From Candidatus Thorarchaeota archaeon (GTDB lineage Archaea; Asgardarchaeota; Thorarchaeia; Thorarchaeales; Thorarchaeaceae), in assembly GCA_048882485.1 (NCBI GenBank), contig JBHLRP010000037.1, forward strand, positions 1-30,752: 30,752 bases of DNA, given 5' to 3'. Shown piece after piece: positions 4,451 to 29,960 of the stretch (position 1 is its first letter; each line of letters starts with the position of its first letter). Made by a program: the position numbers and the translations under genes. Below the pieces are notes generated by a model, which worked only from the letters and a program-made list of their open reading frames with translations, was not told where the DNA came from and did no database searches.

Positions 4451-4509
4451 GGCTAAAACCTCTTTCAAAATCCAGAGCTGGCCTATGTCATAAGAGTGGT
4501 GGTCTTGGC

Positions 4510-5466
4510 CTACTTATAGTTAACTCCGAGCTTCTTTGAAAGTTTGTCTAACATCTCTGTAACCATTGCTGGGAGGTCATAATCTGGTTTCCAGCCCCAT
4601 TCTTCTCGAGCAACACTGTCATCAAGTGACATAGGCCATGAATCCGCAATCTGCTGCCTGAAATCAGGTTCATATTCTATTTCAAAGTCAGGTATATGAT
4701 TCTTAATTTCTTCAGCCAGCTCTGATGGAGTGAAACTGAATGCTGTCACATTGAATGTGCGGTGTTTGAGCGTCTCGTTGTCTGCCTCCATAAGATCTAT
4801 AGTGGACTTGATGCAGTCTGGCATGAACATCATGGGAAGGCGAGTGTCAGGCCCCAGGAAGCATGTGAATTTCTTCTCCTTTAGTGCCTCATAGAATATG
4901 GCAACTGCGTAGTCAGTAGTACCTCCTCCTGGCATGGCTTCGGCACTAATGACACCAGGATAGCGAAGTGAACGGAAATCTATTCCATATCTAAGATTAT
5001 AGTACTCGCCAAACAACTCGACGAAGACCTTAGTCACCCCATACATACTAGTGGGACGAGTAATTACGTCATTAGGGGTATTGTTTCTAGGTGAGGATGG
5101 ACCGAAGGCAGCAATAGAACTAGGTATGAGTGCCTGTTCGAGGCCAAGAATTCGAACAGCTTCCATTACGTTATATGTACCTTCTATATTAGTCCGGTAA
5201 GCAAGTTGTGGGTTTTGCTCTCCAGTCGCTGATAGAACTGAAGCGTTATGGATAACAATGTCAATCTGGTGATCAACCAGCATCGTGTGAAGCTGGTTGG
5301 TATCAAGAGCATCCAATCTATAGTATGGACCATCTTCCTTGAGAATTGGAGGAGGAAACTTCCTTCCAGTGGCGATGACATTTTCCCCGCCATATTTCTT
5401 GCGAAGAACTCCAACAAGCTCAACTCCTATTTGTCCATAGCTTCCAGTAACAAGAATCCGCTTCAT
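4510..5466 (-). CDS. tdh: L-threonine 3-dehydrogenase (extended SDR type)
   Basis: VTGSYGQIG Rossmann motif, PSSIAAFG, YGVTK (YxxxK) and the PGGGTTDYAV signature of SDR-type TDH. Confidence 0.9.
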   Translation of the reverse strand: MKRILVTGSYGQIGVELVGVLRKKYGGENVIATGRKFPPPILKEDGPYYRLDALDTNQLHTMLVDHQIDIVIHNASVLSATGEQNPQLAYRTNIEGTYNVMEAVRILGLEQALIPSSIAAFGPSSPRNNTPNDVITRPTSMYGVTKVFVELFGEYYNLRYGIDFRSLRYPGVISAEAMPGGGTTDYAVAIFYEALKEKKFTCFLGPDTRLPMMFMPDCIKSTIDLMEADNETLKHRTFNVTAFSFTPSELAEEIKNHIPDFEIEYEPDFRQQIADSWPMSLDDSVAREEWGWKPDYDLPAMVTEMLDKLSKKLGVNYK

Positions 5467-5670
5467 GAATCATTCCTCTACGACGCCGTGCTGGTGCCAT
5501 CGTCATTAAAAGTCTTGGCGTGAAAGTCTGTAGTTCTATAAACTGGTCCAAGCCTTTGGCATTTTCTGCCTAGCATCCTGAAAATGTGGAAATAATTATG
5601 AATTTCTGACTATAAATGAGAATTCAAATTGAAGGAATAGCAAGAATAATACTATCAAGTTAGATAATGA

Positions 5671-5685
5671 ACAGATTATTAAGAT
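5671..5685 (+). promoter_or_regulatory. Putative archaeal BRE/TATA promoter (ACAGA-TTATTAAG) of the ThDP enzyme gene
   Basis: TTATTAAGAT ends about 24 nt upstream of ATG 5709, the spacing expected for a short-leader or leaderless archaeal transcript. The identical 10-mer occurs at 22379-22388. Confidence 0.5.
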
Positions 5686-5708
5686 GGCGCGAGTCAAGAA
5701 GGTTGTTG

Positions 5709-7403
5709 ATGATGAAGGGTGCAGAATCGCTTTATAACCTATTGAGAGACTATGGAGTGAAATATCTCTTTGGAATGGATTCTCCAGAGAGCCTATATCA
5801 AGAGATCCACCATGACGAGATACGACCTATTACTGTACGCGATGAGAGATCAGCGGCACACATGGCTGATGGATTTGCCCGTGTGAGCTACCGCCCAGGA
5901 ATATGTACAGCGATACACGGGCCTGGTGTCACCAATCTAATAACAGGAATAGCTGAGGCTTATGCCTCCTGCATCCCTATGATAGGATTAGTATCTGCTG
6001 TTGATTCTAATCTTCTTGGCAAGCATAGCATTCAGGAAATCGATCAAGTATCGTTGCTGAGGCCCATTACGAAATGGGTGACACGCGTAGAGAGTCCCGA
6101 TCACATTCCTGATATGATAAGAAAGGCATTTAGAACTGCAACTACAGGAAAACCAGGTCCTGTCGTACTCAATCTCACTTACACCGCGTTGGAAAATGAG
6201 CAAACAGAAAATGCTTCCACAACTATGGGGGCTGAACCAGAATATTCTTCGATTCCTGCGGCAAGGGTTGCACCAGATTCCAAACTCATTCTAAGAGCTG
6301 CTGAAATGCTTCTTGAAGCCAAGAATCCATGCATTATTGCAGGAGGAGGCGTAATTCTTTCTAGAGCATGCAATGAACTCATGCAATTGGCAGAACACCT
6401 CGTTATTCCCGTCGCTACCACAATGCTAGGAAAGGGTGCTATTCCAGATAATCATTATCTCTCTATAGGTGTTACTGGATATTACACAGATGGAATACCT
6501 GGACGGGGACGGATTGCAAATAGGATTGTCAAAGAGTCCGATACTGTTCTCCTAATTGGAACTCAGACTGAGCAGCCCGATACGGCTGATTGGACAATAC
6601 CTGACCCAGAGTCAACAATAATCCACATTGATGTAGATGCAAATGAAATTGGACGAAATTACCCTACAGCCTTAGGTATTGTAGCTGATGCCAAATTGGC
6701 ATTGAGCCACCTTCTCAATAAAGCGAAAGACAAAGTTTCCAAAGAGCCATCTGAATACCCCCGCGTCAAGCAAATAGAAGAGCTTTTGCAGGAGTGGCGC
6801 GATGCTATTTCGCCAGAATGGAACTCCCAGAAGGCTCCGATAAATCCCCAGCGTGTTATGAAAGAGTTGCAGGAATTCATCGATAGAAAATCCATCCTGG
6901 TTGCAGATGCCAGTTATAGCTCTCTATGGGCGCTGAGCCACATAGATTTCCCTATATCAGGGCGAAGATTTGTTGCACCTCGTGGACTTGGCGTTGTTGG
7001 ATCTGGGTTGCCGTTAGCTATGGGCGTGAAACTTGCATCTCCCGAAAAACGCGTCATGTGCCTTACGGGCGACGGGGGCTTTGGATATTCTTATCCCGAG
7101 CTAGAAACGGCTGCTCGGTATGAAATCCCTGTAGTGGTGCTGATTCTGAACAATCAAACACTAGGCTTCCTCAAGCATTATGAAAAAGTCCTGTACGGAA
7201 AATCTGTTGAGTGTGATTTTCTTGATGCAAATTACGCATCAATCGCTAATGCACTCAAGTGTGACGGGACCCGAATTGAAAACCCGGATGAAATTCACGA
7301 GGCCATTAAAAGCGCTCTAGCGACTAAACGACCATCTGTAATAGACCTGATTGTTGATCCAGACATTCCAGGGCCAATGTCCCTTTTCGACTCGCTTCAA
7401 TAA
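5709..7403 (+). CDS. Thiamine diphosphate-dependent enzyme, acetolactate-synthase-like superfamily
   Basis: VRDERSAAHMADGFAR (catalytic Glu), GPGVTN, central domain GGGVI..TTMLGKG, and ThDP motif GDGGF..NN. No regulatory small subunit nearby. Start placed at MMKGAE, downstream of the TATA box. Confidence 0.88.
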   Translation: MMKGAESLYNLLRDYGVKYLFGMDSPESLYQEIHHDEIRPITVRDERSAAHMADGFARVSYRPGICTAIHGPGVTNLITGIAEAYASCIPMIGLVSAVDSNLLGKHSIQEIDQVSLLRPITKWVTRVESPDHIPDMIRKAFRTATTGKPGPVVLNLTYTALENEQTENASTTMGAEPEYSSIPAARVAPDSKLILRAAEMLLEAKNPCIIAGGGVILSRACNELMQLAEHLVIPVATTMLGKGAIPDNHYLSIGVTGYYTDGIPGRGRIANRIVKESDTVLLIGTQTEQPDTADWTIPDPESTIIHIDVDANEIGRNYPTALGIVADAKLALSHLLNKAKDKVSKEPSEYPRVKQIEELLQEWRDAISPEWNSQKAPINPQRVMKELQEFIDRKSILVADASYSSLWALSHIDFPISGRRFVAPRGLGVVGSGLPLAMGVKLASPEKRVMCLTGDGGFGYSYPELETAARYEIPVVVLILNNQTLGFLKHYEKVLYGKSVECDFLDANYASIANALKCDGTRIENPDEIHEAIKSALATKRPSVIDLIVDPDIPGPMSLFDSLQ

Positions 7404-7464
7404 TGGCATATTCCACCCTAAATGGTAAAGACTATAGCATTGTTTCCTCAATATTGGAAATGAT

Positions 7465-7653
7465 ATGATTGAGCAATGTTCCCATAATCTACTCTATTTA
7501 GGAGAACAGAAGGGAGAGAAGGACTCCAATCGTTATTTCTATTGTACTGAATGCGGTGCAATTGTAATCAGAGCTGAGGATGGGCAGAAGTACATATTGC
7601 CAGGCTCATCAAATCAAAAAGAAAATCCCAAAGTCAAGCAACCACCTTCATGA
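7465..7653 (+). CDS. Small putative Zn-ribbon protein (CxH...CxxC)
   Basis: 62 aa: MIEQCSHNL...YFYCTECGAIV. ATG start 62 nt after the ThDP gene; metal-binding pattern CSH plus CTEC. Confidence 0.55.
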   Translation: MIEQCSHNLLYLGEQKGEKDSNRYFYCTECGAIVIRAEDGQKYILPGSSNQKENPKVKQPPS

Positions 7654-8758
7654 TTACCTCTTCATTGTATCCTACAATCACTCTCATAAAGCCTGATAGC
7701 ATCCGATTGACCTCTGAGTTTCCAGTATCCACAAGAAGTGTGTAACTTGATCCCAAGGAAAGGATTTTTTCCCTAGTCGCGATCACGATGATATTCTCCT
7801 TCCCAACCCTTCTAAGCACATCGGGACTAAACTGCTGATTCCCTCTTCCGAAAATGAAGCCTTGTCCACCAATTGGGGATACAATGATTTTGACACAACT
7901 GCCATCAAATAGGGAAAGCAGCTGTGTTTCATTCTGGTCTTTCGCTACTACTCTCTTTTTCTGAATGACATCTACTCCTAGCAGAGTCTTTTCGATCAAC
8001 AACTCCTCAGAGATTGCTCCGACTGTTGTTCCCGGACCGAGTACATAGTAGGTTTCATCATTCATATCGTCAATGACACGAGCTGCAATAGCTCGACGAT
8101 TCTGATGTTCATCGTACAGGTGGAAGCTACTACTCTTGATTTCTTGAACGAGTCCCTTTTTGTGGGGTATTCTTAGATATCCGTAGAGGCGAGCTGAAAG
8201 TCTATTATCACGGAAGTCTCTTTCGCTTACATCCATGACTTCAGCTTCACGAAGCTGGGCTCTATTACAGAGGTACTCCAATGCTAGGATGCCTGCCATT
8301 CTTGGGTTGATGGCAAATACTCCTGAATGCATCTTCACTCCCGTCGGTATTCCAAGCGCGGGTACTTGTTGGTCAATTACTTTGCAAATGTCCCTCGCTG
8401 TTCCATCTCCTCCCGCGAATAAAATTAGGTCTACACCGAGCTTCATCATTTCTTTGGCTGCTTTCTCTGTGTCTGCAGCTGTAGTTCTTCCCTTTGAGAA
8501 CGGCCCTATAAGTCTAGGATTGAAACCACACGATCGAGTAACATTGCCGCCCATGTCAGATGGACAAGCTACAAATTCAATTTGGCCTTTTATAGATTCC
8601 AATTCAATTATTGCCTCTGCTGTACGAGCTTCAGAAATTGGTTTTGCCCCCATCTCTATTGCCTTCTCAAGAGTGTCAATTCCATCAGTGCCCTTGAGCC
8701 CAACTCTTCCCCCCATGCCTGCAATCGGGTTCACAATAATGCCAATTTTCCTTGCCAA
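7634..8758 (-). CDS. ATP-NAD kinase family / AcoX-like protein (COG3199-type)
   Basis: IGIIVNPIAGMGGRVGLKGTDG, GGDGTARD kinase motif, GIPTGVKMHSGVFA, GGQGFIFGRGNQQ. Likely TTG start at 8758, right after the gcvPB stop, with an upstream AGGAAGGT. Confidence 0.85.
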   Translation of the reverse strand: MARKIGIIVNPIAGMGGRVGLKGTDGIDTLEKAIEMGAKPISEARTAEAIIELESIKGQIEFVACPSDMGGNVTRSCGFNPRLIGPFSKGRTTAADTEKAAKEMMKLGVDLILFAGGDGTARDICKVIDQQVPALGIPTGVKMHSGVFAINPRMAGILALEYLCNRAQLREAEVMDVSERDFRDNRLSARLYGYLRIPHKKGLVQEIKSSSFHLYDEHQNRRAIAARVIDDMNDETYYVLGPGTTVGAISEELLIEKTLLGVDVIQKKRVVAKDQNETQLLSLFDGSCVKIIVSPIGGQGFIFGRGNQQFSPDVLRRVGKENIIVIATREKILSLGSSYTLLVDTGNSEVNRMLSGFMRVIVGYNEEVIMKVVA

Positions 8759-8759
8759 G

Positions 8760-17356: not shown

Positions 17357-18604
17357 TTGAATATCATGAAAAAGGTAACGGAGCAAATGAGAATGTTTGT
17401 GAGACAAGAAGTTCTGGATAGAATATACCCCGAGTTTCCTGCAAAGGAATACGAAGAACGGATCCGGCGGATGAGAGAATCAATGGAGAAGCATGAAATC
17501 GATGCGCTTCTGACAACTGATAAGAAGAACACGGAATACTTCACTGGGAGCATGGTCATGCTTGGCCCCTGGGTTTCAATCCTTTCATTGGATGCTGAAC
17601 CTGTTATCCTAATCCCGGCATTCCTAGCTGGTTCTGCAGAAAAGACTGCATGGGCAAGAAACATAAAGAAGAATCCAACAGCTCACATGAAAACAGATCC
17701 GATGTATTTTGCGAAGTTCATCGTTGAGAACTTCAAAGAGCTGGGACTGAGCAAGGGAACCATTGGATTGGAATATGGGGAGGATCTGGTTACCGGACTT
17801 CAGATTTCTGAGTTCGACTATGTGAGAAGCAATCTGCCGGACGCGAAGTTTGTTAGCGGTGAAGATGTCATATGGGATTGTAGAATGATCAAATCCAAGC
17901 TTGAACTTGAGAAAATGAAGAATGCAGCCGAGATTGCTATGGCTGGCTACAGCAATGCTCGGGAAGAAGTAAAGAAGGGTATGACTGAGATTGAGATTAG
18001 TGAAGTTTTCAAAAGAACATACGTAGAGGAACAGGCCAAGAGGAAGCATAATACTCAGGAGCTTGGAATCTTCAATATCAGGTCCGGCCCTGAGAGGTAT
18101 CACATGGCTGATTCATTCAATCAAGATCGGAAGGTCCAGGATGGAGAAACATTGGTAATGAATGTGGGTGCATGGTACAGAAGATACTATGCTAATTGGT
18201 CAAGAACAGCGTTCGTAGGAAAGCCAAAAGACGGGCATATGAAGGGACTCAAGGCTATTGAGAAGTGTTTCGAAGTGATAGCGGAGGAAACAGCCCCCGG
18301 GATTAAGGCAGGAGACCTCTACGATAAAGCAGTCGAACCCTTGAGAGACAGTTTTGGCTCCGGAGAGGTGTATGCCACAGTTGGCATTGGATGTGGATTA
18401 TATCCACATGAGCCGCCTTACATCGGAAAGGATCGAAAGGATATATTGCAGCCAGGAATGGTCTTCACTGTTGTCGCATGGTCCTATGACATCGTACCTG
18501 ATGGACTCGGCATCTTGGGATTTGAACACGAGTTTGTTGTTACCGAATCAGGCAATAGACCAATTGTACCCTTTGAGGACGAATTGCTATGGGTCTTAGA
18601 CTAG
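17357..18604 (+). CDS. M24 (pita-bread fold) hydrolase with creatinase-type N-domain, metal ligands degenerate
   Basis: EYEERIRRMRESM..IDALL N-domain; RMIKS..ELEKM, GMTE.EI, HEPP, LQPGMVFT. Real start is probably ATG 17387 or 17393. Confidence 0.85.
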   Translation: MNIMKKVTEQMRMFVRQEVLDRIYPEFPAKEYEERIRRMRESMEKHEIDALLTTDKKNTEYFTGSMVMLGPWVSILSLDAEPVILIPAFLAGSAEKTAWARNIKKNPTAHMKTDPMYFAKFIVENFKELGLSKGTIGLEYGEDLVTGLQISEFDYVRSNLPDAKFVSGEDVIWDCRMIKSKLELEKMKNAAEIAMAGYSNAREEVKKGMTEIEISEVFKRTYVEEQAKRKHNTQELGIFNIRSGPERYHMADSFNQDRKVQDGETLVMNVGAWYRRYYANWSRTAFVGKPKDGHMKGLKAIEKCFEVIAEETAPGIKAGDLYDKAVEPLRDSFGSGEVYATVGIGCGLYPHEPPYIGKDRKDILQPGMVFTVVAWSYDIVPDGLGILGFEHEFVVTESGNRPIVPFEDELLWVLD

Positions 18605-18646
18605 TCACAGTGAGTCCGCAATTCATAAATCATAGGTGGTGTAAAA

Positions 18647-19066
18647 ATGAAGAAAATCGAGCTTGAATTCAAGGACAGCACGGTCAAGAGTATCGGGGTT
18701 CTACTGGAAAAGGATGCTCCAGAAACATGCAAAGCCTTTTGGGATGCACTTCCGCTTGAAAACGAAATGGTTCATTCATCGTGGTCTGGAGAAGCCATAA
18801 TTGCACATCCATGTGGCGTAAAAGTGGGTGCAGATTTCCCTCAAGAGAATAAGACAATCTTCGTTGGCCCGGGAGAACTTACAATGGAAACAAATGTGGA
18901 GGAGCTAATGATATTCTATGGAAGGGGCCATCCGCGTTGGAGAATGGGTCCTATTCCCATGAGTGTTTTTGGCAAGATTGTAGATGGGCTGGAGGACTTC
19001 GCAGAACAGTGCAAGAGGCTCCCGAAGGAAGGATCAAAAGTCCTGATAATCAGAAGGAAGGAATAA
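18647..19066 (+). CDS. DUF3830 family protein (cyclophilin-like fold)
   Basis: LLEKDAPETCKAFWDALPLE..HSSWSGE, EN.T...PGE, IFYGR, VFGKIVDGL; good RBS. Confidence 0.8.
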   Translation: MKKIELEFKDSTVKSIGVLLEKDAPETCKAFWDALPLENEMVHSSWSGEAIIAHPCGVKVGADFPQENKTIFVGPGELTMETNVEELMIFYGRGHPRWRMGPIPMSVFGKIVDGLEDFAEQCKRLPKEGSKVLIIRRKE

Positions 19067-20018
19067 TCTCTTTCCCAAGGACCTTCACGGTATCCAGGAT
19101 GTCAGAGAGTGTGCCAAATCTGAGGCAACAGATTTCATCAATATGCTGCTCGAGACTTTCAATCTGAACAATGCATTGACTGGAATTCCCTGCAATTGCA
19201 AACTCGCGAACCAAATCATCAGTGACCATTTCGGCACCCTTTGATCTATCAGTCCTCATTGCGTCTGCAATCTGCCTGATTAGCGCCTTAGATTCTGTCA
19301 ATTCAATTGCATACGAAGGTGTTGTTGGAATGGATAACGCTACAACAGGTTTCACTGCATCAATATTGCCATCTTCTGATATATGCATTGGAACATTATC
19401 GACGACTTCAATTTTGCTTCTCTTTGATTTCCTCAAGCCTTCCTCTACCTTCTCCAGACAAAGCAATTGAGCTTCAAATGGAGGAGTGATTATAATCCCA
19501 TCAGCCATTTCTCCTGCCAGCTTTGATAGAACTGGTCCCCGTGTTCCTACAAAGAGCGGAATGGATACCGGATCGAATATGCGGACTCCCTTCAGACGCA
19601 CGATTTTCCCATCATATTCTACTATGTCACCTTGAAACAAGGTGCGAAGCATGTCTATTGATTCCCTGACTGCTGTAACTGGCCGGTCCCACATCTCGAT
19701 CTCTAATGGCCTAAGAGGCAATGTTCCACCAGCACCCATTCCTAGGATAATTCTATCTCCACAAAGCTCAGCAAGCGTGGCAGCTGCAACACCAATATTC
19801 GCTGCATATCGAGAATATGGGTTTGAAACGCCACAACCTATTCGAATGGTTTCAGTACCTTGACTTATTGCTGCCATCGTTATGAAAGGATCTCTCCAAT
19901 TTGTTGCTGGCGTATGATCAGCAATCCACACTGAATTGAACTCATTTTTCTCTAATGCTTGTGCTATCTCAACCATTTCCGTGATTGGGAGGTTTCCCAC
20001 GGCTAAACCAAACTTCAT
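19050..20018 (-). CDS. LLM-class, probably F420-dependent oxidoreductase, Mer (methylene-H4MPT reductase)-like
   Basis: MKFGL.., VWIADH, TETIRIGCGVSNPYSR, ATLAEL..DR..LGMGAG, GTRGP..KLAGEMADG parallel Mer motifs. ATG start at 20018. Confidence 0.8.
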   Translation of the reverse strand: MKFGLAVGNLPITEMVEIAQALEKNEFNSVWIADHTPATNWRDPFITMAAISQGTETIRIGCGVSNPYSRYAANIGVAAATLAELCGDRIILGMGAGGTLPLRPLEIEMWDRPVTAVRESIDMLRTLFQGDIVEYDGKIVRLKGVRIFDPVSIPLFVGTRGPVLSKLAGEMADGIIITPPFEAQLLCLEKVEEGLRKSKRSKIEVVDNVPMHISEDGNIDAVKPVVALSIPTTPSYAIELTESKALIRQIADAMRTDRSKGAEMVTDDLVREFAIAGNSSQCIVQIESLEQHIDEICCLRFGTLSDILDTVKVLGKEIIPSF

Positions 20019-20226
20019 TGCTTTTCCCCCATGATATTTGCATTCTATTTGAATTGTGACATGTATACTTGCATTCACACCAATAAATCTGATGGTTTAT
20101 TCAGCATATATACATTAATTCTCTGATTTCCTGTTTCTCCTGTGAGCATTTGGTTCTTCTAATTCCATATGAAAACATCTATGAGAGGATACAGCTCTTT
20201 TGCTAGGAATCACAGATCATCACATC

Positions 20227-21606
20227 CTAAAAGACGAACTCGATACCAATATCTGCAATTTCATTCCTAATTGTCTCATAGATATGAAAGGCCTCTTTGG
20301 ATGGTAGCCCGGTTACAGGATTACAGCATTCCTGGAAACGCTTCCCTGCAGGCGGGGCTTCAATCTGATCAATGTATCGTGGAACTATCTGCCTTACCAT
20401 TTCATTTGCATCGGCTCGGGTGACTCCTGCTGAAGAGTATGCCACCTCGGATATGAACATTGGTTCAATAGGAGTCAAGAAGTCAATCTTTTTCCCCTTG
20501 GCAACAGCACCTGTTTCTATTGAAGCGCCTGAAGCTACTGTGGCGATATATCCCGCGGCGAATTCTCGGAGTGCCATTTCGGTACAAGGACCAGCTGCAG
20601 TATATGGATAATATAGAGTAGGCACATTAGTATTCCTCGTTGCAGCCTGTGCATATGTGCTGGCTATCCATATTAGCTGAGGCATTGAACTAGCAACATG
20701 ATTAATGTGTATTGGAAAGAAGAGTGTCCAGCATGCACCATAGACGAGTATCGCCATTATTTGAGCAGCTGCACATGTGACTGCGGTACCCTCTGCACCT
20801 CCTGAATATCCTCCATAGATAGGTCCGAAAAGACCTGCAATTGGAAGTCCCAGGGCCTGGAGAAATGTTGCACGATTCATTAAGTCGAAATCCGTTTTCA
20901 TCTCTGTAAGTTCAGCAATCATGTAGCTATCTGATTTTCTTAACCCATATTGAGGATGAATGCCGGATGCTAGGGCGACTGATGATTCTGCTGTACCAAT
21001 TGCACTCATTATGGGCAATCCCGGCCGTCCAGCTCTTCTCAGGGCTTCCCTTCCCAGAATAACGGTTCTAATCGAACCCTCTATTTCCAAGGGTGACCGT
21101 GTTCTAATGTCTATACCATCAATATTTGCCAAACAAGGAGTGGTTATTGCATCTGCTATGGGTATCATGGTGGCTGCTCTTTCGACCAGAAGGGTGAAGA
21201 TTCTTTCGTCAGAAACCGGAGAGCCACCTGCACCAGCGAAAATCCAGGGATGGCTTTTTGATTCGGGACGTCTAGGAATTAGAGTTCCCTGCTCAAGCCC
21301 TTCACCAAAAACAGTCTGCTGATGCGAAAGTCGAATTTCCTTCCTAATCTCCTTTTCTTCAAACCCGATAATTCTCTCAGTATCTTTGCAGTACACCCCA
21401 ATATGCGATATTAGATCAAAACCAGCTTTGAATATTGAATCGGCTAAACCGTCGTCAGAGGGAACAATGAATTCAGGATCATAACTAATCCCGTATTCGC
21501 GAACTAATTCTTGCACTTTGGGAGCAAATAGGCGGACATCGAAATCCCTTTCTAGATATGGCCTCCCTTCAAGAGCGCGCCTAGTTATTTCAATCATTGG
21601 TATCAT
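20227..21606 (-). CDS. mtmB: Monomethylamine:corrinoid methyltransferase (MtmB) homologue lacking pyrrolysine
   Basis: 459 aa from ATG 21606 (RBS AAGGAGG). Motifs GVYCKDTERII, GSPVS, AGRPG, PIYGGYSGG.E, AGPCTEM, APPAGKRFQEC match MtmB. No in-frame TAG. Confidence 0.88.
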   Translation of the reverse strand: MIPMIEITRRALEGRPYLERDFDVRLFAPKVQELVREYGISYDPEFIVPSDDGLADSIFKAGFDLISHIGVYCKDTERIIGFEEKEIRKEIRLSHQQTVFGEGLEQGTLIPRRPESKSHPWIFAGAGGSPVSDERIFTLLVERAATMIPIADAITTPCLANIDGIDIRTRSPLEIEGSIRTVILGREALRRAGRPGLPIMSAIGTAESSVALASGIHPQYGLRKSDSYMIAELTEMKTDFDLMNRATFLQALGLPIAGLFGPIYGGYSGGAEGTAVTCAAAQIMAILVYGACWTLFFPIHINHVASSMPQLIWIASTYAQAATRNTNVPTLYYPYTAAGPCTEMALREFAAGYIATVASGASIETGAVAKGKKIDFLTPIEPMFISEVAYSSAGVTRADANEMVRQIVPRYIDQIEAPPAGKRFQECCNPVTGLPSKEAFHIYETIRNEIADIGIEFVF

Positions 21607-21610
21607 CGAG

Positions 21611-22258
21611 CTAGCTCCTCCTTTCCTCAATTAGCTTTGTAGCAAGCGCTATAGCCGCAGGGGCAGTTTCTGCAAAGCCATCTGCTCCAATTTTATCTGC
21701 CCACTCTCTAGTTGTGGCTCCGCCTCCTACCATAACTATAAACTTCTGGCGATTTCCAGTTCCTTCCAGATATTCTATGACATCCTTTTGCCCTCCAAGG
21801 GTTGTTGTCATTAAAGCAGACACAGCAATGATATCCGCCTTGAAGTGCTCGGCTTCCTGGATGAATCGTGAAGGTGGAACGTCGACTCCGAGATCACTCA
21901 CTTCAAATCCGTTGGCAAGAAGCAAGGATTTCAATATGTCTTTACCAATATTATGAATGTCCCCCTTTACCGTTCCGAGGACAACCTTCCCCTTGAAGGG
22001 TATATCACTTCCTTCAATATGCGGAAGAACAGCTTCCAGTCCAGCAACCATGGCTTCTCCCGATAGAACTAGATCAGCGAGATAAAGCTCGGATTTCGTG
22101 AATAGATTTCCCACTTCCCTCGCACCAGCTGATATTCCCTTCTCCAGAATGTCAAGAGGTTTCACTCCAGATTTCAGACAATCCTTTGCATATTTCACAA
22201 CCAATTCACTATCACCCATTATGACAGATTCCCTCAAGTTCTGCATTTTGTCATCCAT
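21611..22258 (-). CDS. Cognate corrinoid (B12-binding) protein, MtmC/MtbC-like
   Basis: Cap domain followed by GTVKGDIHNIGK (DxHxxG), DLGVDVP, SALMTTT, VMVGGG. RBS GAGGTG before ATG 22258; directly upstream of mtmB. Confidence 0.92.
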   Translation of the reverse strand: MDDKMQNLRESVIMGDSELVVKYAKDCLKSGVKPLDILEKGISAGAREVGNLFTKSELYLADLVLSGEAMVAGLEAVLPHIEGSDIPFKGKVVLGTVKGDIHNIGKDILKSLLLANGFEVSDLGVDVPPSRFIQEAEHFKADIIAVSALMTTTLGGQKDVIEYLEGTGNRQKFIVMVGGGATTREWADKIGADGFAETAPAAIALATKLIEERRS

Positions 22259-22370
22259 GATTAGCACCTCTCTTTGATGTTTGAATCCTATTCAACCACC
22301 AATTCTTCCATTAAACTAGCTAAATTATGAGCAGTCTTTAATCAATCGATATTTATCATGCAGAATATTC

Positions 22371-22388
22371 AAAAAACCTTATTAAGAT
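22371..22388 (+). promoter_or_regulatory. Putative BRE/TATA promoter of VOC paralogue 1 in a divergent intergenic region
   Basis: AAAAAACC-TTATTAAGAT; the same TATA 10-mer as at 5676-5685. Confidence 0.5.
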
Positions 22389-22439
22389 AATGCTCAACAT
22401 TCAAAAACAACAAAATAAAGCGACAGTGCGTGTTCTTAG

Positions 22440-22907
22440 ATGCTGGGAGTGTTTGATCATGTGGGCATCGTTGTTCGAGATATCGAAAAGGCATTAGGCT
22501 TCTATTCTGAGGTCCTTGGCTGGAAACTTCCTTCTAAAGGCCCATACTCGAAAATCCTCCATATGGACGTGCCAGGTCAAAGAATGAAATATGCGATGCT
22601 CTTAGCAGGGAGCAGATTTGTGGAGCTGATTGAGCCTGAGGAAGGAACTTGGCTGAGCTATCTGGAAGCAAAGGGTGAAGGTGCCATATGTGAATTGTGT
22701 GTTCTCGTTGATGATATCGATGAAGCCATTTGCATGCTGGAGCAGAGAGGACTAGTACAAATGGATTGGTCCAATAAGCGGCTCTCTGAGAAGTTTATGA
22801 CCACTCCATCCGGATCCAAGTGTTTCTATCTGCCAATAAAGGAAACTCTCGGAACATTGATAGAAGTCCTTCAGCGTCCTGCAAAGAAAATTGACGAACG
22901 TATGTAG
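22440..22907 (+). CDS. VOC family protein (methylmalonyl-CoA epimerase/glyoxalase-like), paralogue 1
   Basis: FDHVGIVVRDIEKA..FYSEVLG, VELIEP, YLEAKGEG, VDDI, GTLIEVLQ. Confidence 0.85.
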   Translation: MLGVFDHVGIVVRDIEKALGFYSEVLGWKLPSKGPYSKILHMDVPGQRMKYAMLLAGSRFVELIEPEEGTWLSYLEAKGEGAICELCVLVDDIDEAICMLEQRGLVQMDWSNKRLSEKFMTTPSGSKCFYLPIKETLGTLIEVLQRPAKKIDERM

Positions 22908-23041
22908 ACATAGCGAATAGCAGCCAGTAATGAAATATCAACTTCAGTAGACTTGGGAAAACCATAGATTAATAGGAAGCGGAGAGATAGAGCAAAGAAA
23001 AATCCGAATCCATTAGTCGATTCTGCAACGGTTGAAGAAAG

Positions 23042-23857
23042 ATGTTTAGACTTGCTGTTGGACAAATGAACCCACGAATAGGCGATACAAGAGGAAACAT
23101 GATAAAAATGGTTTCTCTTCTGGAATCTGCTGAGAAACAGGATGTCGATTTAATCGTCCTTCCTGAGTGTGCAAATTCCGGCTATGTATTTGAGAATCGA
23201 GAGGAAGTGTTGAGCCTCTCGGAGGAAATTCCAAACGGACCTTTCTCAAAGAAACTTGCATCATGGTCCAAGAATGGGAGTATGGTGATTGCAGGTCTGG
23301 TTGAAAAAACACCTGAAGGTCCATATGATTCTGCAGTTGCTTTCGGGAATGGCAAACATCTTGCTACTTACCGGAAAATCCATCTCTTTGGAAAGGAGAA
23401 GGAATGGTTTCTACCTGGGAACAAAGAGCCGCAATTAATTGAATTCAATGAGTATCGATTTGGTGTGATTATATGTTTTGACTGGGCTTTTCCTGAGCTC
23501 AGTAGAATCTTGTCCCTGAAAGGAGCACAAATATTAGCTCATCCTGCAAATCTTCTCTTGAGCTATTCAAATAGAGCGATGATAACGAGATCTATTGAGA
23601 ATCACATTTTTACTGCAACTTCGAGTCGTGTAGGCGAAGATAGGGGACTGAGATTCATTGGTGGTTCCCAAGTTACAGATCCAAGGGGGCACATATTATT
23701 CAGAATGGATTATGAAGAGGAAGGAGTTGCATGGGTAGATATAGAACCAAGTGCAGCAGACAGCAAGATAATCCGAGGAAATGATATTGTGAAGGACGCA
23801 AATGTCTTGGTGGACAGAAGACCAGATCTATATGGTCGAATTACTGAGCCTGAATAA
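23042..23857 (+). CDS. Nitrilase / carbon-nitrogen hydrolase family protein
   Basis: Glu-Lys-Cys triad in LPECANSGY, YRKIHLF and ICFDWAFPE; HPANL; DRRPDLY. Confidence 0.9.
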   Translation: MFRLAVGQMNPRIGDTRGNMIKMVSLLESAEKQDVDLIVLPECANSGYVFENREEVLSLSEEIPNGPFSKKLASWSKNGSMVIAGLVEKTPEGPYDSAVAFGNGKHLATYRKIHLFGKEKEWFLPGNKEPQLIEFNEYRFGVIICFDWAFPELSRILSLKGAQILAHPANLLLSYSNRAMITRSIENHIFTATSSRVGEDRGLRFIGGSQVTDPRGHILFRMDYEEEGVAWVDIEPSAADSKIIRGNDIVKDANVLVDRRPDLYGRITEPE

Positions 23858-23923
23858 TCTCAACCGAATTCACTGAAAAAGCCCTTAAAGCGCCATTGAG
23901 AGAAGCCATGGATTAGGAAAGCC

Positions 23924-24397
23924 CTAGGAAGGAGAGAGCTCTAGCCGGGGATCCTCCTTCATGACTTTCGCTATGACTTGTGTATTCAATTGCCTTATTC
24001 CTTCTATCTTCAGGATTTGCTCAATAATTTTCATGAATGCATCTCGATCTCTTGACCTGGTCATAATCAGAAAGTCACAATCGCCCAGAATCATATATAC
24101 ACCCCACACCCCAGAAATCTTGGATAGTTCCTCGCCTATCTTGTCATAGGAACCCTTGGCAAGATTTATGCTAATTCTAATAGATGCAATGTAGTCGATA
24201 TCCATCTTTATAGGGTCTATTTTCGCATAGTATCCGTCTATGATCTCTGCCCTTTCAAGACGTCTTAGTCGATAGTGAGTTGTAGATGTAGGGGCTCCCA
24301 CTTTCTCTGCAATCTCCTGCAAGGAGGACCTACATTCCTTTTGGAGTTCTACGAGAATTGCGATATCCAGCTCATCTAGAAGTGTCTTTGCAGGCAT
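23924..24397 (-). CDS. Lrp/AsnC family transcriptional regulator
   Basis: LDELDIAILVELQKECRSSLQEIAEKVG..ST.HYRLRRLE..II.GY HTH, plus a RAM domain (VYMILGDCDF). Confidence 0.92.
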   Translation of the reverse strand: MPAKTLLDELDIAILVELQKECRSSLQEIAEKVGAPTSTTHYRLRRLERAEIIDGYYAKIDPIKMDIDYIASIRISINLAKGSYDKIGEELSKISGVWGVYMILGDCDFLIMTRSRDRDAFMKIIEQILKIEGIRQLNTQVIAKVMKEDPRLELSPS

Positions 24398-24718
24398 TCC
24401 AAACCACATTCCTTTGAGTTTGCTTCTGCATGTATGAGATAAAAATGCTCTGAAGCCTTATGGTGTTGTCACGTTTCATTCAAATCTACCTCGATATTAC
24501 TTCTCTATTAAGTCAAAATCCCTCAACGACTACATCTGTCAATCCCGGGTTGTTTGACTTATCTGAGGAGCAATTTAAATCCTGTCTCTTATTTTCCTTC
24601 ACCATTTCAATCATTTATTCATTGTATAGGCACGATTCCTGCATGGGATTCAAACTGTAATAACCCTTTTTAGATGAATTGCTAAATAACAGCAAAGCAA
24701 TTTCAAAAGAATGGTGCG

Positions 24719-25180
24719 ATGAAGATGCTTGGTATCTTTGATCATATCGGAATCGTTGTCAGTGATATTGAAAAGGCGATTGAATTCTATTCTGAAGTCC
24801 TAGGTTGGAATCTTCCCAGTGAAGGTCCCTATTCAAGAATCTTAAATGTTAATATTCCTGGAGAGAAGATTAGGTACGTGATGCTTTCATCAGGAGACAC
24901 CTATCTGGAGCTTATTGAACCGCAAGAAGGAGTATGGATGGAATATTTGGAAGAAAAAGGTGAAGGGGCAATTTGCGAGCTGTGTGTTCTAGTAGACGAT
25001 ATTAAGGCCGCCAGAAGCATCATCGAAAGCAAAGGAATATGTCCTTGTGATAGATTCGGAAATCCATTGAAGGATGAATTTGAAGAAGCCCCCTCTGGAT
25101 CAAGATATTTCTATCTCTCTTCTGAAGACTCCTTTGGAACATGGATTGAGATTCTTGAGAGACCCTGGCTGAATCAATAA
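24719..25180 (+). CDS. VOC family protein, paralogue 2
   Basis: Aligns without gaps to paralogue 1 (85/147 identical by hand count) and has the same motifs. Confidence 0.85.
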   Translation: MKMLGIFDHIGIVVSDIEKAIEFYSEVLGWNLPSEGPYSRILNVNIPGEKIRYVMLSSGDTYLELIEPQEGVWMEYLEEKGEGAICELCVLVDDIKAARSIIESKGICPCDRFGNPLKDEFEEAPSGSRYFYLSSEDSFGTWIEILERPWLNQ

Positions 25181-25201
25181 TTCATTTATATATGCAAATC
25201 G

Positions 25202-26182
25202 ATGGAGGAAGGGCAATTGCTGGTAGAGAAGGAAAGATTAGTTGAGCTATATGCAACCACTTTAAAAATTCGCTTATTCGAAGAGAAGGTTTGGGAACTT
25301 TTCAGTCAGAATCTCATTCCGGGAACCGTTCATCTGTATTTGGGCCAGGAAGCAGTGGCAGCAGGTGTGATAAATGCGTTGGAGGACCGAGATTGGGTCC
25401 AGAGCACGCACCGTGGACATGGTCACGTTATTGCCAAAGGCGCCAACATGAATGCTGCGATGGCCGAACTGCTTGGACGACGAACGGGCTCTTGCAAGGG
25501 GAAGGGCGGGTCCATGCATATCACTGAATTTTCGGCGGGCGTTCTAGGTGCGACTGGCGTTGTAGCTTCAGGACTGCCAATTGCACTAGGAGCCGCATTG
25601 TCGGCAAAGTTTCGCAATACGGATGAAGTTGTTGCATGCTTTTTCGGTGATGGTGCAGCTAATAACGGTACCTTCGGCGAGTCCCTCAACATGTCAAGCA
25701 TATGGCAATTGCCAGTCATATGGGTAGTCGAGAACAATCTCTACGCGATGGGCACTCCTATCAAGATGATGTGTCCGAGTGCAGATATAGCGGTGCGAGC
25801 TGATGGATATTGTATTCCAAAAACTGTTGTTGACGGGAATAACGCACTCGAGGTCTATAAGGCCTCATTTGAAGCTGTGGAACGAGCGCGTCAGGGCAAG
25901 GGTCCTTTTCTCATAGAATGCAAAACATACCGATTGAAGGGTCATTCTCGATTCGATGCGGGCAAATATCGTCCTTCCGAAGAGGTAGAAGAGTGGGTGG
26001 AACGAGACGCTGTCGAAATAATGCTCAATATCGCCAGGCAGGAGAAAGCCCTTACAAAGGCAAAGGCTAATCGAATTCGAAAGAAAATTGAAGTTGAAGT
26101 CGAAGCTGCCGCCAAATTCGCATTGGAATCTGAAATTCCAGATTCGAGCGAAACATACACTGATGTCTTCACGGAGGCGTAA
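25202..26182 (+). CDS. ThDP-dependent dehydrogenase E1 alpha subunit (AcoA/PdhA-like)
   Basis: PGTVHLYLGQEA, STHRGHGH, GKGGSMH, ThDP motif GDGAANNG..ENN, TYRLKGHS. Confidence 0.92.
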   Translation: MEEGQLLVEKERLVELYATTLKIRLFEEKVWELFSQNLIPGTVHLYLGQEAVAAGVINALEDRDWVQSTHRGHGHVIAKGANMNAAMAELLGRRTGSCKGKGGSMHITEFSAGVLGATGVVASGLPIALGAALSAKFRNTDEVVACFFGDGAANNGTFGESLNMSSIWQLPVIWVVENNLYAMGTPIKMMCPSADIAVRADGYCIPKTVVDGNNALEVYKASFEAVERARQGKGPFLIECKTYRLKGHSRFDAGKYRPSEEVEEWVERDAVEIMLNIARQEKALTKAKANRIRKKIEVEVEAAAKFALESEIPDSSETYTDVFTEA

Positions 26183-26185
26183 AAG

Positions 26186-27160
26186 ATGCCGGAGATAACC
26201 TATAGGCAAGCCATCACAGAGGGACTCAGAGAAGAAATGAAGAGGGATGAAAATGTGTTTCTTATTGGGGAGGATATCGGCCGCAATTGGGGAGGCGCAT
26301 TTCAGGTAACTAAAGGTCTTGCTGAGGAATTTGGAGATGATAGAGTCATCGATTCTCCGATTTCTGAGAACTCATTCGTTGGTGCATGTGTTGGTGCAGC
26401 CATAACAGGATTGCGACCGGTTGCGGAGATAATGTTTGGAGACCTAATCTCTCTGGCAATCGACCAAATCTGCAACCAAGCTGCCAAGATGCGATATATG
26501 TTTGGCGGACAGACATCCGTTCCACTTGTTGTTAGGACTGTGTTTGGCGAGTTCAAGAATATGGCAGCTCAACATTCGCAATCACTTGAAGCTTGGTTCA
26601 TGCATACCCCAGGCCTCAAAATCGCAGTGCCTGCTTTTGCTTATGATGCAAAGGGGCTCATAAAATCTGCAATACGTGATGCGGACCCTGTGATGTTTTT
26701 CGAGCATAAAATGCTCTATGATAAGAAGGAAGATGTGCCTCAAGATGAGTATACGATTCCTTTCGGAGAAGCGAGTATTAGAAGAGAGGGGGATGATATC
26801 ACAATCTGGGCTACATTCTACATGCTTCACAAGGCATTGGAGGTAGCAAAAGAACTCGGTAGAGAAGGTATCAGCGTAGAAGTGGTGGATCCGCGAACTC
26901 TAGTACCGTTAGATAAACAGACTCTGATAGATTCAGTTAAGAAAACTGGTCGATTGGTTCTTGCGACGGAAGAAACAAGGACAGGCGCTACAACAGGTGA
27001 AGTTGCCGCGATTGTTCAGGAAGAAGCCTTTGACTGGTTGGATGCACCAATCATACGAATAAACGCACCAGATACACCAATCCCCTTTAGTCCCATTCTT
27101 GAAGAAACCTACATTCCGTCCAGTAAACAGCTGATCGCAGCAATTAAGAGTATCATCTAG
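26186..27160 (+). CDS. ThDP-dependent dehydrogenase E1 beta subunit (AcoB/PdhB-like)
   Basis: GEDIG, DSPISE, RPVAEIMF.D, AAQHSQSLE, FFEHK, DPRTLVPLD. Confidence 0.92.
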   Translation: MPEITYRQAITEGLREEMKRDENVFLIGEDIGRNWGGAFQVTKGLAEEFGDDRVIDSPISENSFVGACVGAAITGLRPVAEIMFGDLISLAIDQICNQAAKMRYMFGGQTSVPLVVRTVFGEFKNMAAQHSQSLEAWFMHTPGLKIAVPAFAYDAKGLIKSAIRDADPVMFFEHKMLYDKKEDVPQDEYTIPFGEASIRREGDDITIWATFYMLHKALEVAKELGREGISVEVVDPRTLVPLDKQTLIDSVKKTGRLVLATEETRTGATTGEVAAIVQEEAFDWLDAPIIRINAPDTPIPFSPILEETYIPSSKQLIAAIKSII

Positions 27161-27340
27161 TTTATGATAGAGGTCATTCTGATAATAACTTCAAATTAAG
27201 CAGGCATGGGAGGATCCAATCATGCAGGACAATGGTGCAATCGGATTTCAGAGGGTGTTTGAATAGGCTTCAGCTATGTAGTTGTAATTTTGAACATCCT
27301 TCAGATTTAATAGCACCTTGGGGGTGAACCTAATTGGGCG

Positions 27341-28279
27341 ATGCCTCTGTCCTCGAATACAAAGTACTATGCGGCATTGGTTGTTTCGATGTTCATTTGG
27401 GGGTCGAGTTGGGTATCAATCAAAATTGTCACCTCTATTTCACAACCCATGACCGTGGGATTCTTCAGATATGCCATTGCGGGCTTACTCTTTCTACTTC
27501 TGCTTCATTCAAACGGCGTATCGCCTAGAACTCTATTCAATAGAGATACTATGCCCGCCCTAGTATTGGGAGGAATTACAGGCGTGTTTGGATTTACTTA
27601 TCTGAGTCTTGTAGGAACCCGTTTCACCACAGCCGGACAAGCGTCTATTATAGCAGGCATCAATCCAATCACCGTCAGCTTCTTTGCATATCTATTGCAC
27701 AGAGAACTACTTGCGTCTAGGGGGAGATATCTGGGAATCGTGCTTGCCTTCCTGGGGATAGTCTTCGTTGTAGGAATACAAGCACTTCTCGAATTTAACC
27801 TAGATTACCTCGCGGGGAATATGATCTTGATCATTTCAATGCTATCGTGGGGTGTCTATTCCTCTACATCAAAGATTGCCATGCAAAATCTAACTCCAGT
27901 TGAGGCTACTGCAGGAAGTATATTTGTCGGATGGTTTTTGTTTTGTATTGGAACTGTTACAGAACTTGAGTCATTGAAACAGGTTCTCCTAATTGCCGAG
28001 TTCTGGTGGAATGTGATATTCCTTGGTGCTATCTCTGCCTTTTTTGGATTTTTGATGTATTTTGAGGCCGTCAAAAGGATAGGAGTGACAAGGACCGGGA
28101 GCTTTACAAGTCTAATACCCTTGTTCGGAACAGCTACATCAATAATTCTTCTTGAAGAGCAAATCCTCTGGACCTTTACGGTTGGATTGGTTCTTGTCGT
28201 CCTGGGGATAATTATACTCAATGCCCCAGGGAATGAGGAATCAACTGAAACCAGTGCGCATATTCCATCAGAAGTCTAG
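27341..28279 (+). CDS. EamA/DMT family transporter
   Basis: IWGSSW..K, FRY, two EamA repeats, about 10 TM helices, LLEE. Confidence 0.9.
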   Translation: MPLSSNTKYYAALVVSMFIWGSSWVSIKIVTSISQPMTVGFFRYAIAGLLFLLLLHSNGVSPRTLFNRDTMPALVLGGITGVFGFTYLSLVGTRFTTAGQASIIAGINPITVSFFAYLLHRELLASRGRYLGIVLAFLGIVFVVGIQALLEFNLDYLAGNMILIISMLSWGVYSSTSKIAMQNLTPVEATAGSIFVGWFLFCIGTVTELESLKQVLLIAEFWWNVIFLGAISAFFGFLMYFEAVKRIGVTRTGSFTSLIPLFGTATSIILLEEQILWTFTVGLVLVVLGIIILNAPGNEESTETSAHIPSEV

Positions 28280-29857: not shown

Positions 29858-29960
29858 ATGAATCGACCACAGGGTCTATGCCATTGGTTGATGAAATATG
29901 CTCTTGTTCATGCCGCCTGCATTGATGGACAGATTTACCTGCATTTGTACTCTATTTGAG

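Follow-up and report, generated by a model that had tools for sequence, protein, structure and literature searches.

Does the gene-rich segment at positions 5467 to 28398 of contig JBHLRP010000037.1, from a Candidatus Thorarchaeota archaeon, encode one catabolic system, or did unrelated genes meet there by chance? The window analyzed here is the entire contig (C37; 30,752 bp) of a 3.96-Mb metagenome-assembled genome (MAG) that is 90.5% complete and has an estimated contamination of 5.8%. A sequence-only reading had proposed a single pathway, made of paralogues with altered active sites, in which a nitrogen-containing compound is imported, hydrolyzed, demethylated via a corrinoid and a pterin, and finally decarboxylated or cleaved. 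All the gene families that it named were recovered at their positions by the open reading frame (ORF) listing and the Pfam and NCBIfam scans, which form the basis of the gene calls across the window. We found that the segment is a genuine accessory catabolic island, rare and conserved in part, which is assembled from uncharacterized subfamilies. Judging from its gene content, we lean toward the view that it serves the catabolism of a small nitrogen compound and combines neofunctionalized paralogues in a conserved core with a local MtmB extension. In what follows, G000 is the genome of the window, G005 and G011 belong to the same genus, G017 and G389 to one other genus of the same family, and G390 to a third genus. 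The term variant (GcvPA, GcvPB, and M24) designates the island form with a rewritten active site, and LLM designates the gene for the Mer-like oxidoreductase.

The island spans 22.9 kb and is absent from same-genus genomes. In a DNA comparison, window positions 4513 to 5465 and 28401 to 30751 matched adjoining DNA in G011:C13 and G005:C10, and homology to these congeners ends at about position 5466 and restarts at positions 28399 to 28401. The gene order in both congeners is beta-lactamase-like, M20, epimerase, alpha/beta-hydrolase, and IlvA; some 150 bp separate their M20 and epimerase genes, which in the window are 22.9 kb apart. The segment is thus one discrete insertion relative to the congeners, and its sharp-bordered presence/absence polymorphism between close relatives is that of a genomic island. 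A scan of the window revealed no tRNA, no flanking repeat of at least 10 nucleotides (nt), and no integrase at the island borders. In the sediment runs X2 and X3, short contigs start at position 28399, and their 30-base loose end is identical to an intergenic sequence of G005 (L102; G005:C10, 1156 to 1185); the depth beyond this junction increases by about 25 to 35%. Since the loose ends at 28399 carry G005 sequence, these sediments also harbor a sister population without the island, and the polymorphism between co-occurring populations offers a natural experiment by which the island might be tied to a niche. Another small insertion consists of a FAD flavocytochrome-c-like gene (3038 to 4468; TIGR01813, 345 bits) located between those for the alpha/beta-hydrolase and the epimerase, for which there were no matches at an E value of ≤1e-60 among the 15 same-genus genomes searched.

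Outside the genus, the core of the island is found again, as one block, in two further genera. It is syntenic in G017 (contig C13), G389 (C28 and SDNP01000037), and G390 (C10), with 50 to 80% amino acid identity and other flanking genes. This core of about 14 genes comprises an Lrp regulator, a COG3199 kinase followed by variant GcvPB and GcvPA, a HAAT importer, variant M24 with DUF3830, the LLM gene, an EamA transporter, and a set of VOC, E1 alpha/beta, and nitrilase genes. The G017 island (51 to 80% amino acid identity to the window) contains, in this order, Lrp, EamA, the kinase, variant GcvPB and GcvPA, a DAPDH-like dehydrogenase gene, the solute-binding protein (SBP), two permeases, an aldehyde:ferredoxin oxidoreductase (AFOR), two ATPases, and variant M24, which is followed by DUF3830, LLM, an HdrB-like CCG protein, EamA genes, VOC, E1 alpha, E1 beta, and the nitrilase. 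The same two halves are present in G389, split over two contigs, and G390 is rearranged, with DUF3830, M24, and the ATPases followed by AFOR, EamA, and the kinase-GcvPB-GcvPA-DAPDH-like series. Orthologues of the DAPDH-like, AFOR, and HdrB-like genes of these relatives were not found in the window genome, and the MtmB, corrinoid protein, and ALS-like genes of the window were found in none of the island copies of G017, G389, and G390. The island thus combines a core that is stable with a shell that varies. As a discrete insertion whose core is syntenic in other genera, it is more than a chance juxtaposition, in agreement with the sequence-only reading. The claim of a single pathway held in part: there is one accessory unit, with a core coinherited in three genomes of two genera despite rearrangement and with a shared divergent region of 62 bp, and it is the demethylation branch that was not supported. 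The proposed check of gene neighborhood and co-occurrence divided along the same line, the core modules being co-conserved and the MtmB-corrinoid pair not, so that the pair failed the refutation test to which the pathway had been submitted.

Four types of island enzyme (M24, MtmB, GcvPA/GcvPB, and VOC) deviate from their families at defining residues, as had been noticed previously, and on this basis are best regarded as neofunctionalized paralogues. One of these types is found in the GcvP-kinase module, which is located on the reverse strand and includes variant GcvPA (10313 to 11701), the alpha subunit, and variant GcvPB (8760 to 10316), the beta subunit of a noncanonical P-protein-like pyridoxal phosphate (PLP) enzyme. 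The third gene encodes a COG3199/NAD-kinase-fold (AcoX-like) kinase (7634 to 8836; Pfam NAD_kinase N and C domains), whose start is likely near position 8762 since its relatives align from about residue 27. This kinase shares 54 to 58% identity with its counterparts in the G017 and G390 islands and 44% with a second copy in its own genome (C30). The PLP lysine motif NLHKSF and the two-subunit fold are retained (308 and 233 bits to chains B and A of 1WYT, respectively), and the remaining motifs are rewritten: YT[PS]YQPE..SQG reads YTG-EVYSDLGRYQ in GcvPA, whereas AHGTNPA, PHGGGGPG, YDGANLN, and TxYFPLIV read SHPCNAS, PHGSCGPG, IDQANVN, and FTSHEPWLV in GcvPB. Identical replacements are found in G017 and G390; the copy of the window genome on C20, which shares 38% identity with variant GcvPA, and the G031 copy are canonical. 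Because the canonical motifs are missing, glycine is an unlikely substrate. The variant subunits nevertheless pass the NCBIfam equivalog cutoffs (485 versus 364 bits for NF001696 and 552 versus 441 bits for NF003346), and canonical GcvPB copies of relatives reach 668 to 759 bits on NF003346. In a phylogenetic tree, full support (100/100) separates the variant GcvPB family from canonical GcvPB, and the copies of the Thorarchaeial islands group in a single clade (88/84) beside a Bathyarchaeia clade. The gcvT-gcvH pair of the genome is located on C38, and a further three GcvH-like genes are found elsewhere; none of these is inside the island.

To place this module, we searched the whole library and scanned genomes, scoring motifs in the 80 best genome loci and neighbors in 78 loci. 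The canonical AHG[TS]NP motif was present in none of these 80 loci, 60 of which contained SHP-x-[ND]-[AG] and 20 other variants. A COG3199 kinase adjoins variant GcvP in 53 of the 78 loci, from many phyla of both archaea and bacteria. With its noncanonical motif set and neighboring kinase, the window enzyme belongs to a large and widespread orphan GcvP-kinase family, the members of which range from bacteria such as Clostridia and Chloroflexota to Asgard archaea and Bathyarchaeia. The only COG3199 kinase gene of genomes from three other Asgard families (G027:C5, G039:C11, and G031:C1) was observed 0 to 3 kb from the canonical gcvPB; the link between kinase and P-protein may therefore predate the duplication that gave rise to variant GcvP, and the pair was perhaps duplicated as a unit. 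Our literature search returned nothing on COG3199 and nothing relevant for AcoX and NAD kinase or for gcvPA/gcvPB paralogues.

The second main module adjoins the first. The HAAT-family SBP (11969 to 13198, reverse strand; Pfam Peripla_BP_6; 62% identity to G017) is the first gene on the strand that continues with variant GcvPA, variant GcvPB, and the kinase. Its start is 62 bp from that of the permeases on the opposite strand, which lead into the ATPases, variant M24, and DUF3830. This 62-bp divergent promoter region, which joins the GcvP-kinase module to the importer and to M24/DUF3830, is a wiring that is new here and provides a testable supply line. At position 11753, between variant GcvPA and the SBP, one base is missing in the contigs of runs X1 and X2, which reflects either variation between strains or an error in a homopolymer. 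The relatives of the SBP in the Protein Data Bank (PDB) are generic Leu/Ile/Val-type binders that give no clue to its ligand. Two HAAT permeases (13261 to 14172 and 14169 to 15401; Pfam BPD_transp_2; 59 to 63% identity to G017) and two ABC ATPases (15881 to 16657 and 16590 to 17345; Pfam ABC_tran and BCA_ABC_TP_C; 58 to 65% identity to G017 and G390) are encoded on the forward strand. The second permease has a Cys-rich C-terminal tail (15243 to 15401; CQICG...CCG...CC...C...HCG), and its G017 orthologue aligns over just 276 of 410 residues. A 106-residue ORF upstream of the first ATPase gene in G017 resembles the stop-broken stretch at 15594 to 15876 of the window so weakly (E value, 0.002) that it was not counted.

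Variant M24 (17357 to 18604, forward strand) is a pita-bread hydrolase of the creatinase/ectoine-hydrolase type with a Creatinase_N domain. The family of M24 metallopeptidases is defined by five metal ligands (D, D, H, E, and E), at which this protein reads N, N, I, V, and E; compared with the Pyrococcus prolidases 1PV9 and 1WY2, both Asp residues are replaced by Asn, His by Ile, and the first Glu by Val, and the last Glu alone is retained. The loss of four of five ligands bears out the earlier description of a metal-free M24. It belongs to a small, Thorarchaeia-restricted clade with internal identities of 49 to 74% and a next-best identity of 31%, and its closest relatives are P0002 (74%) and P0004 (62%). 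An analogy with DddP, the M24-type dimethylsulfoniopropionate (DMSP) lyase, was considered and set aside, since DddP is reported to retain its metal site and variant M24 lacks four of the five ligands. On contig C97 of the same genome (L032; 91 to 3896), we observed an HdrB-like CCG protein, an aminotransferase, an Lrp regulator (50% identical to that of the island), and an M24 protein (30% identical to the variant), so that the genome contains a second Lrp-M24 pairing.

The predicted partner of variant M24 is the cyclophilin-like DUF3830 protein (18647 to 19066, forward strand; Pfam PF12903). The two genes are adjacent in G017 and G390, and in G389 an M24 gene truncated by the contig end lies just ahead of DUF3830. 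Full-length DUF3830 matches were found in 5 of 400 Asgard genomes, namely, the four island genomes and the divergent G195 of another family; this corresponds to 4 of the 86 genomes of the family of the window (f1), G000 included, and to none of the 16 other same-genus genomes. An ESM Atlas lookup returned DUF3830 clusters only, and a literature search for DUF3830 returned nothing. Beyond Thorarchaeia, three loci, each a single case, support the links among these genes. (i) A Chloroflexota locus (L040) contains LLM, M24, SBP, permease, ATPase, hydrolase, MerR, second M24, and E1 beta genes, which supports the association of M24, LLM, E1, and importer. (ii) In a Bipolaricaulis MAG (L070; 65 to 5497), DUF3830 and M24 are adjacent and co-directional with hydantoinase A (HyuA) and B (HyuB) genes and a family-5 SBP, linking DUF3830/M24 to cyclic-amide chemistry. 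(iii) In Anaerolineae (L173), an HAAT ABC system directly adjoins a GcvP-kinase-SDR cluster.

The remaining core genes are found mostly in the right part of the island. Both VOC proteins, which are duplicates of each other with 58% identity, are altered in the way noted earlier: VOC1 (22440 to 22907, forward strand) resembles methylmalonyl-CoA epimerase (MCEE) with altered ligands, and VOC2 (24719 to 25180, forward strand) heads the VOC-E1 alpha-E1 beta series. Each has CE at the HH ligand pair of MCEE and Glu in place of the third metal ligand, His, so that the H/E(Q)/H/E ligand set is broken, and they score 56 to 57 bits against the 115 bits demanded by the epimerase model TIGR03081. In the four island copies, the 15 residues surrounding the CE site of VOC2 (GEGAICELCVLVDDI) are invariant. 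E1 alpha (25202 to 26182) and E1 beta (26186 to 27160), both on the forward strand and 72 to 80% identical to those of G017 and G389, are subunits of a thiamine diphosphate (ThDP)-dependent 2-oxoacid/acetoin-type dehydrogenase. The E2 and E3 components that would complete such a complex are missing from the island. On contig C17 of the same genome (L033; 6863 to 10052), paralogous E1 alpha/beta genes are followed by a lipoyl E2, which the island E1 may borrow. The nitrilase-superfamily C-N hydrolase (23042 to 23857, forward strand; 204 bits to Pyrococcus abyssi 3IVZ; 64% identity to G017 and G389) is not deviant: its Glu-Lys-Cys triad, aligned to 3IVZ, is intact, which confirms its superfamily, and it reaches 234 bits against a cutoff of 500 on the NCBIfam archaeal nitrilase model. 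The Lrp/AsnC regulator (23924 to 24409, reverse strand; Pfam HTH_AsnC and AsnC_trans_reg) has 63 to 65% identical orthologues in the G017 and G389 islands, and the EamA-family transporter (27341 to 28279, forward strand; Pfam EamA), the last island gene, is 56 to 57% identical to the copies there. At the left border, the ALS-like ThDP enzyme (5667 to 7403, forward strand; Pfam TPP_enzyme N/M/C; PRK06112, 516 bits versus a cutoff of 673) is specific to this version of the island.

Taken together, the predicted functions make import, hydrolysis, and then decarboxylation or cleavage of a nitrogen compound the most economical reading. The HAAT-type importer would take in a small N-substituted amino compound, and variant M24 with DUF3830 would open an amide or amidine C-N bond in the manner of creatinase and ectoine hydrolase. 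The primary amino product would then pass to the variant GcvPA/GcvPB enzyme and its COG3199 kinase, and this enzyme would decarboxylate or cleave a substrate other than glycine. The Mer-like LLM protein, VOC, E1 alpha/beta, and the nitrilase-type amidase could process the fragments, Lrp would sense the substrate or a product, and EamA would move a product. The MtmB-corrinoid pair would be a local extension upstream of LLM and outside the conserved route, which perhaps admits an N-methylated form of the substrate. In the relatives, the DAPDH-like and AFOR genes hint at diamino acid and aldehyde intermediates. Creatine-, ectoine-, and guanidino- or ureido-type substrates would each account for some of the genes, and no single one of them accounts for the whole set. 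More tentatively, and as a possibility on the unlikely side, we propose that the island is the first natural context to reveal the supply of the widespread GcvP-kinase family, in which an imported amidine- or amide-linked amino compound would be converted by M24/DUF3830 into the true GcvP substrate and, in this archaeon alone, MtmB would add an N-methylated congener; such an anaerobic Asgard pathway, so far undescribed, would couple corrinoid-dependent demethylation to a cleavage system for a substrate other than glycine.

A different origin of the same gene set has to be weighed, in which the island is a flexible mosaic. Four independent modules (GcvP-kinase, ABC-M24-DUF3830-LLM, MtmB-corrinoid, and VOC-E1 alpha/beta-nitrilase) would have gathered at an insertion hot spot and share no pathway. 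Several observations point in this direction and weigh against a common function. The island versions differ in five or six genes (AFOR, DAPDH-like, and HdrB-like in the relatives; MtmB-corrinoid and ALS-like here), so that their chemistry may differ as well, and the second small insertion (g03) is located 1 kb away. The GcvP-kinase module is autonomous and occurs alone in dozens of other contexts, with an SDR as its neighbor in 35 of the 78 loci, and the MtmB-corrinoid pair is found elsewhere in the genus as a two-gene unit of its own. M24/DUF3830 is found beside variant GcvP in Thorarchaeia only, and this link could therefore be a lineage-specific co-location. The E1 alpha/beta and nitrilase genes could be generic passengers, given their close paralogues in the same genome (71 to 77% and 56% identity, respectively). 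In addition, the G390 contig ends such that the right half of its island is outside view, and the island genomes are not independent since only four were found, all from one family. On the other hand, the order and content of the core are retained at 50 to 80% amino acid identity in another genus and in a different context, the two main modules are still linked after the rearrangement in G390, they share the 62-bp divergent region, one Lrp orthologue accompanies the block, and the LLM-M24-ABC-E1 beta set recurs in the Chloroflexota locus. We consider the mosaic unlikely, although it is the alternative that survives best, and retain the accessory catabolic island with a conserved core as the preferred interpretation.

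The complete pathway of the sequence-only reading adds to this core a route in which MtmB passes a methyl group to the corrinoid and on to a pterin, the Mer-like protein oxidizes the methyl-pterin, and GcvP cleaves the skeleton, for example along creatine, sarcosine, and a glycine-like product. The genes for it are present. The MtmB paralogue (20227 to 21630, reverse strand; PF05369, 310 bits) is itself a lineage-specific insert in the island and has Met at the position of Pyl202 in the Methanosarcina MtmB 1L2Q; its full-length frame has no stop and thus no in-frame TAG for pyrrolysine (Pyl), as the designation non-Pyl MtmB had implied. It overlaps by 20 nt with the gene for its cognate corrinoid protein (21611 to 22267, reverse strand; Pfam B12-binding and B12-binding_2), which is 65% identical to the copy on C123 and falls below the NCBIfam cutoffs for MtgC and pyl_corrinoid; the MtmB fold thus has its neighboring corrinoid protein. 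Both genes are co-directional with LLM (19050 to 20078, reverse strand), from which they are separated by a gap of 148 bp. This LLM-class oxidoreductase is probably F420 dependent, and Mer is its nearest family. Further points in favor are the URO-D-type MT2 genes and RamA-like activases elsewhere in the genome and the occurrence of MtrAH and the Wood-Ljungdahl pathway in Thorarchaeia (PMC9635834). Moreover, MttB-type methyltransferase, corrinoid, or URO-D MT2 genes are located within 8 kb of variant GcvP in 9 of the 78 loci (Bathyarchaeia, Chloroflexota, and Aminicenantes), so that a demethylase may feed GcvP. In one of these, an Anaerolineales MAG (L142; 6253 to 13581), corrinoid, MttB, variant GcvPA, variant GcvPB, SDR, and kinase genes follow each other on one strand with short gaps in an operon-like arrangement. 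Finally, a genome of another Asgard family (G029:C3, L021; 6967 to 13431) contains in a row MtmB, LLM (31% identical to that of the window), a second MtmB (with one TGA), and a corrinoid gene.

The comparison of islands nonetheless speaks against this route. The MtmB-corrinoid pair is missing from all other island copies, and no MtmB was found anywhere in the genome of G017, which is 94% complete and contains the island core; in G017 and G389, the slot upstream of LLM that the pair fills in the window is taken by genes for EamA, a 110-residue protein, and the HdrB-like protein. Since the pair is not co-conserved with the other modules, the demethylation branch finds no support as a conserved feature, and the pair is a private add-on of this genome outside the conserved core. 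Nor is the Mer-like gene a Mer: it scores far below the Mer cutoffs (TIGR03555, 161 versus 348.7 bits; NF002619, 170 versus 276 bits), is one of 13 LLM paralogues in the genome, and coexists with a true Mer (C3, 80517 to 81551; 443 bits). Its orthologues (51 to 53% identity) adjoin DUF3830 in G017 and G389, the islands of which have no MtmB, and it is beside an M24 gene in the Chloroflexota locus too; a scan of metagenome contigs with an alignment of this protein gave two matches only, at 29%. With no MT2 or activase gene inside the island and no canonical motifs in GcvP, which makes glycine an unlikely substrate, we regard the complete demethylation pathway as improbable.

The origin of the pair is consistent with a local extension. 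The genome contains two MtmB-corrinoid pairs, and the island MtmB is 68% identical to the MtmB on C123, which is the genus orthologue (89 to 96%). Of 16 congeners, 8 contain MtmB pairs, which are orthologous to the C123 pair and located beside oligopeptide-type ABC ATPases. Both paralogues share the motif at the former Pyl site, which in the Thorarchaeial clade reads AGRPGLPIM[SN]AIGTAES. The closest homologues of the island MtmB in a search of 5.8e9 clustered proteins are about 70% identical; in this 5.8-billion-protein search, the island MtmB itself was not present at 100% identity, and M24 and DUF3830 are on record letter for letter. One TAG codon occurs within the MtmB match of G004 and likewise in that of G006. 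Pyrrolysine was considered for both. In G004, the codon is probably the terminator of the corrinoid gene, which precedes MtmB in the same frame, since the 685 residues of the open frame equal the sum of 218 and 467.

Ectoine or hydroxyectoine degradation, with variant M24 as a DoeA-like ring hydrolase, the amidase in place of DoeB, and Lrp in a role like that of DoeX, accounts for less of the island. DoeA is a creatinase-like M24 protein under an AsnC/Lrp regulator (PMC3187862), variant M24 can be aligned end to end with DoeA 6TWK at 73 bits compared with 45 bits for creatinase (1CHM), and a conversion of a 2,4-diamino acid via an aldehyde to an acid, in the relatives of diaminobutyrate to aspartate, would suit the DAPDH-like and AFOR genes that G017 and G390 contain. 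However, the scores on the DoeA/EutD models NF038259 (110 bits versus a cutoff of 575) and TIGR02993 (86 versus 613) are no better than those on prolidase models, the protein being equally poor on the NCBIfam PepQ and DoeA models (110 bits versus cutoffs of 575 to 630). There are no DoeB, DoeC, or DoeD homologues and no DoeB-type Pfam family in the window, orthologues of the DAPDH-like and AFOR genes are missing from this genome, and no role is left for GcvP-kinase, E1 alpha/beta, and LLM. We judge this explanation to be quite improbable.

A chimeric contig, in which assembly or binning created the juxtaposition and which the MAG status and contamination estimate of the genome might suggest, merits practically no credence, because positions 9000 to 28428 are covered without a break, and with at most three differences, by individual contigs of some 26 kb from each of the runs X1, X2, and X3 (two studies), two pieces joined via an overlapping contig cover the same range in run X4, and both flanks share 77 to 95% DNA identity with the congeners. 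The same contigs establish that the order of the modules, including MtmB-corrinoid, is not an assembly artifact. One or more of the sediment runs spanning the island may be the source of the MAG itself.

These results bear on annotation as well as on physiology. We found no studied member of the GcvP-kinase family, the Thorarchaeial non-Pyl MtmB, the metal-free M24 clade, or DUF3830. The source records call variant M24 an Xaa-Pro peptidase and the MtmB paralogue a monomethylamine methyltransferase, and variant GcvP, being above the NCBIfam equivalog cutoffs, will be named GcvPA/GcvPB by annotation pipelines. With these mislabels, reconstructions of Asgard metabolism will credit the archaea with additional capacities for glycine cleavage, prolidase activity, and the use of methylamine that they probably lack. 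The ligands of the SBP, Lrp, and M24/DUF3830 could in turn reveal the substrate of the whole GcvP-kinase family.

Among known systems, creatinase (creatine amidinohydrolase; 1CHM) shares with variant M24 the Creatinase_N domain, the pita-bread fold, and the lack of an M24 metal site. It differs in sequence, as reflected in the low alignment score, and in context, since no sarcosine oxidase or dehydrogenase is near the island gene; we know of no DUF3830 partner of creatinase. The GcvPA/GcvPB enzyme of Thermus thermophilus (1WYT) has the same two-subunit architecture, fold, and PLP lysine as variant GcvP, which differs in at least five rewritten motifs, in its separate clade, and in being accompanied by a COG3199 kinase instead of T and H proteins. 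In the acoXABC locus of Cupriavidus necator, AcoX, an NAD-kinase-fold protein of obscure role, is encoded together with ThDP-dependent E1 alpha/beta and an enzyme of a lipoyl-dependent type. The island likewise has this combination in one locus, although its kinase is coupled to GcvP and not to E1, and E2/E3 are absent. The doeABX-doeCD and eutABCDE clusters of Halomonas elongata and Sinorhizobium (PMC3187862) resemble the island in that a creatinase-like M24 is combined with another C-N hydrolase and with a regulator of the AsnC/Lrp type. They convert an osmolyte of N-heterocyclic or amidine type, once imported, to an amino acid, a function that the island is proposed to share. The island differs in an M24 far below the DoeA cutoffs, in the absence of DoeB (M14-like), DoeC, and DoeD, in its HAAT importer, and in GcvP-kinase, DUF3830, LLM, VOC, and E1 alpha/beta genes without counterpart. 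MtqB/MtqC of Methanococcoides methylutens Q3c, which act on tetramethylammonium and choline and were presented by their authors as the first case of a non-Pyl MtmB for which a function was demonstrated (PMC13044021), share with the window an MtmB fold without pyrrolysine beside its own corrinoid protein; compared by description, the island differs in its nonmethanogenic host and in having no MT2 gene nearby. Finally, MtgB, MtcB, and MtpB of the MttB superfamily demethylate quaternary amines with a corrinoid protein and MT2 (PMC6855144, PMC13080624). The window protein has the MtmB and not the MttB fold, and its island contains neither MT2 nor activase; the likeness is that of non-Pyl, corrinoid-dependent N-demethylation feeding C1 metabolism in anaerobes, and genes of this superfamily are located near variant GcvP in some bacteria and Bathyarchaeia.

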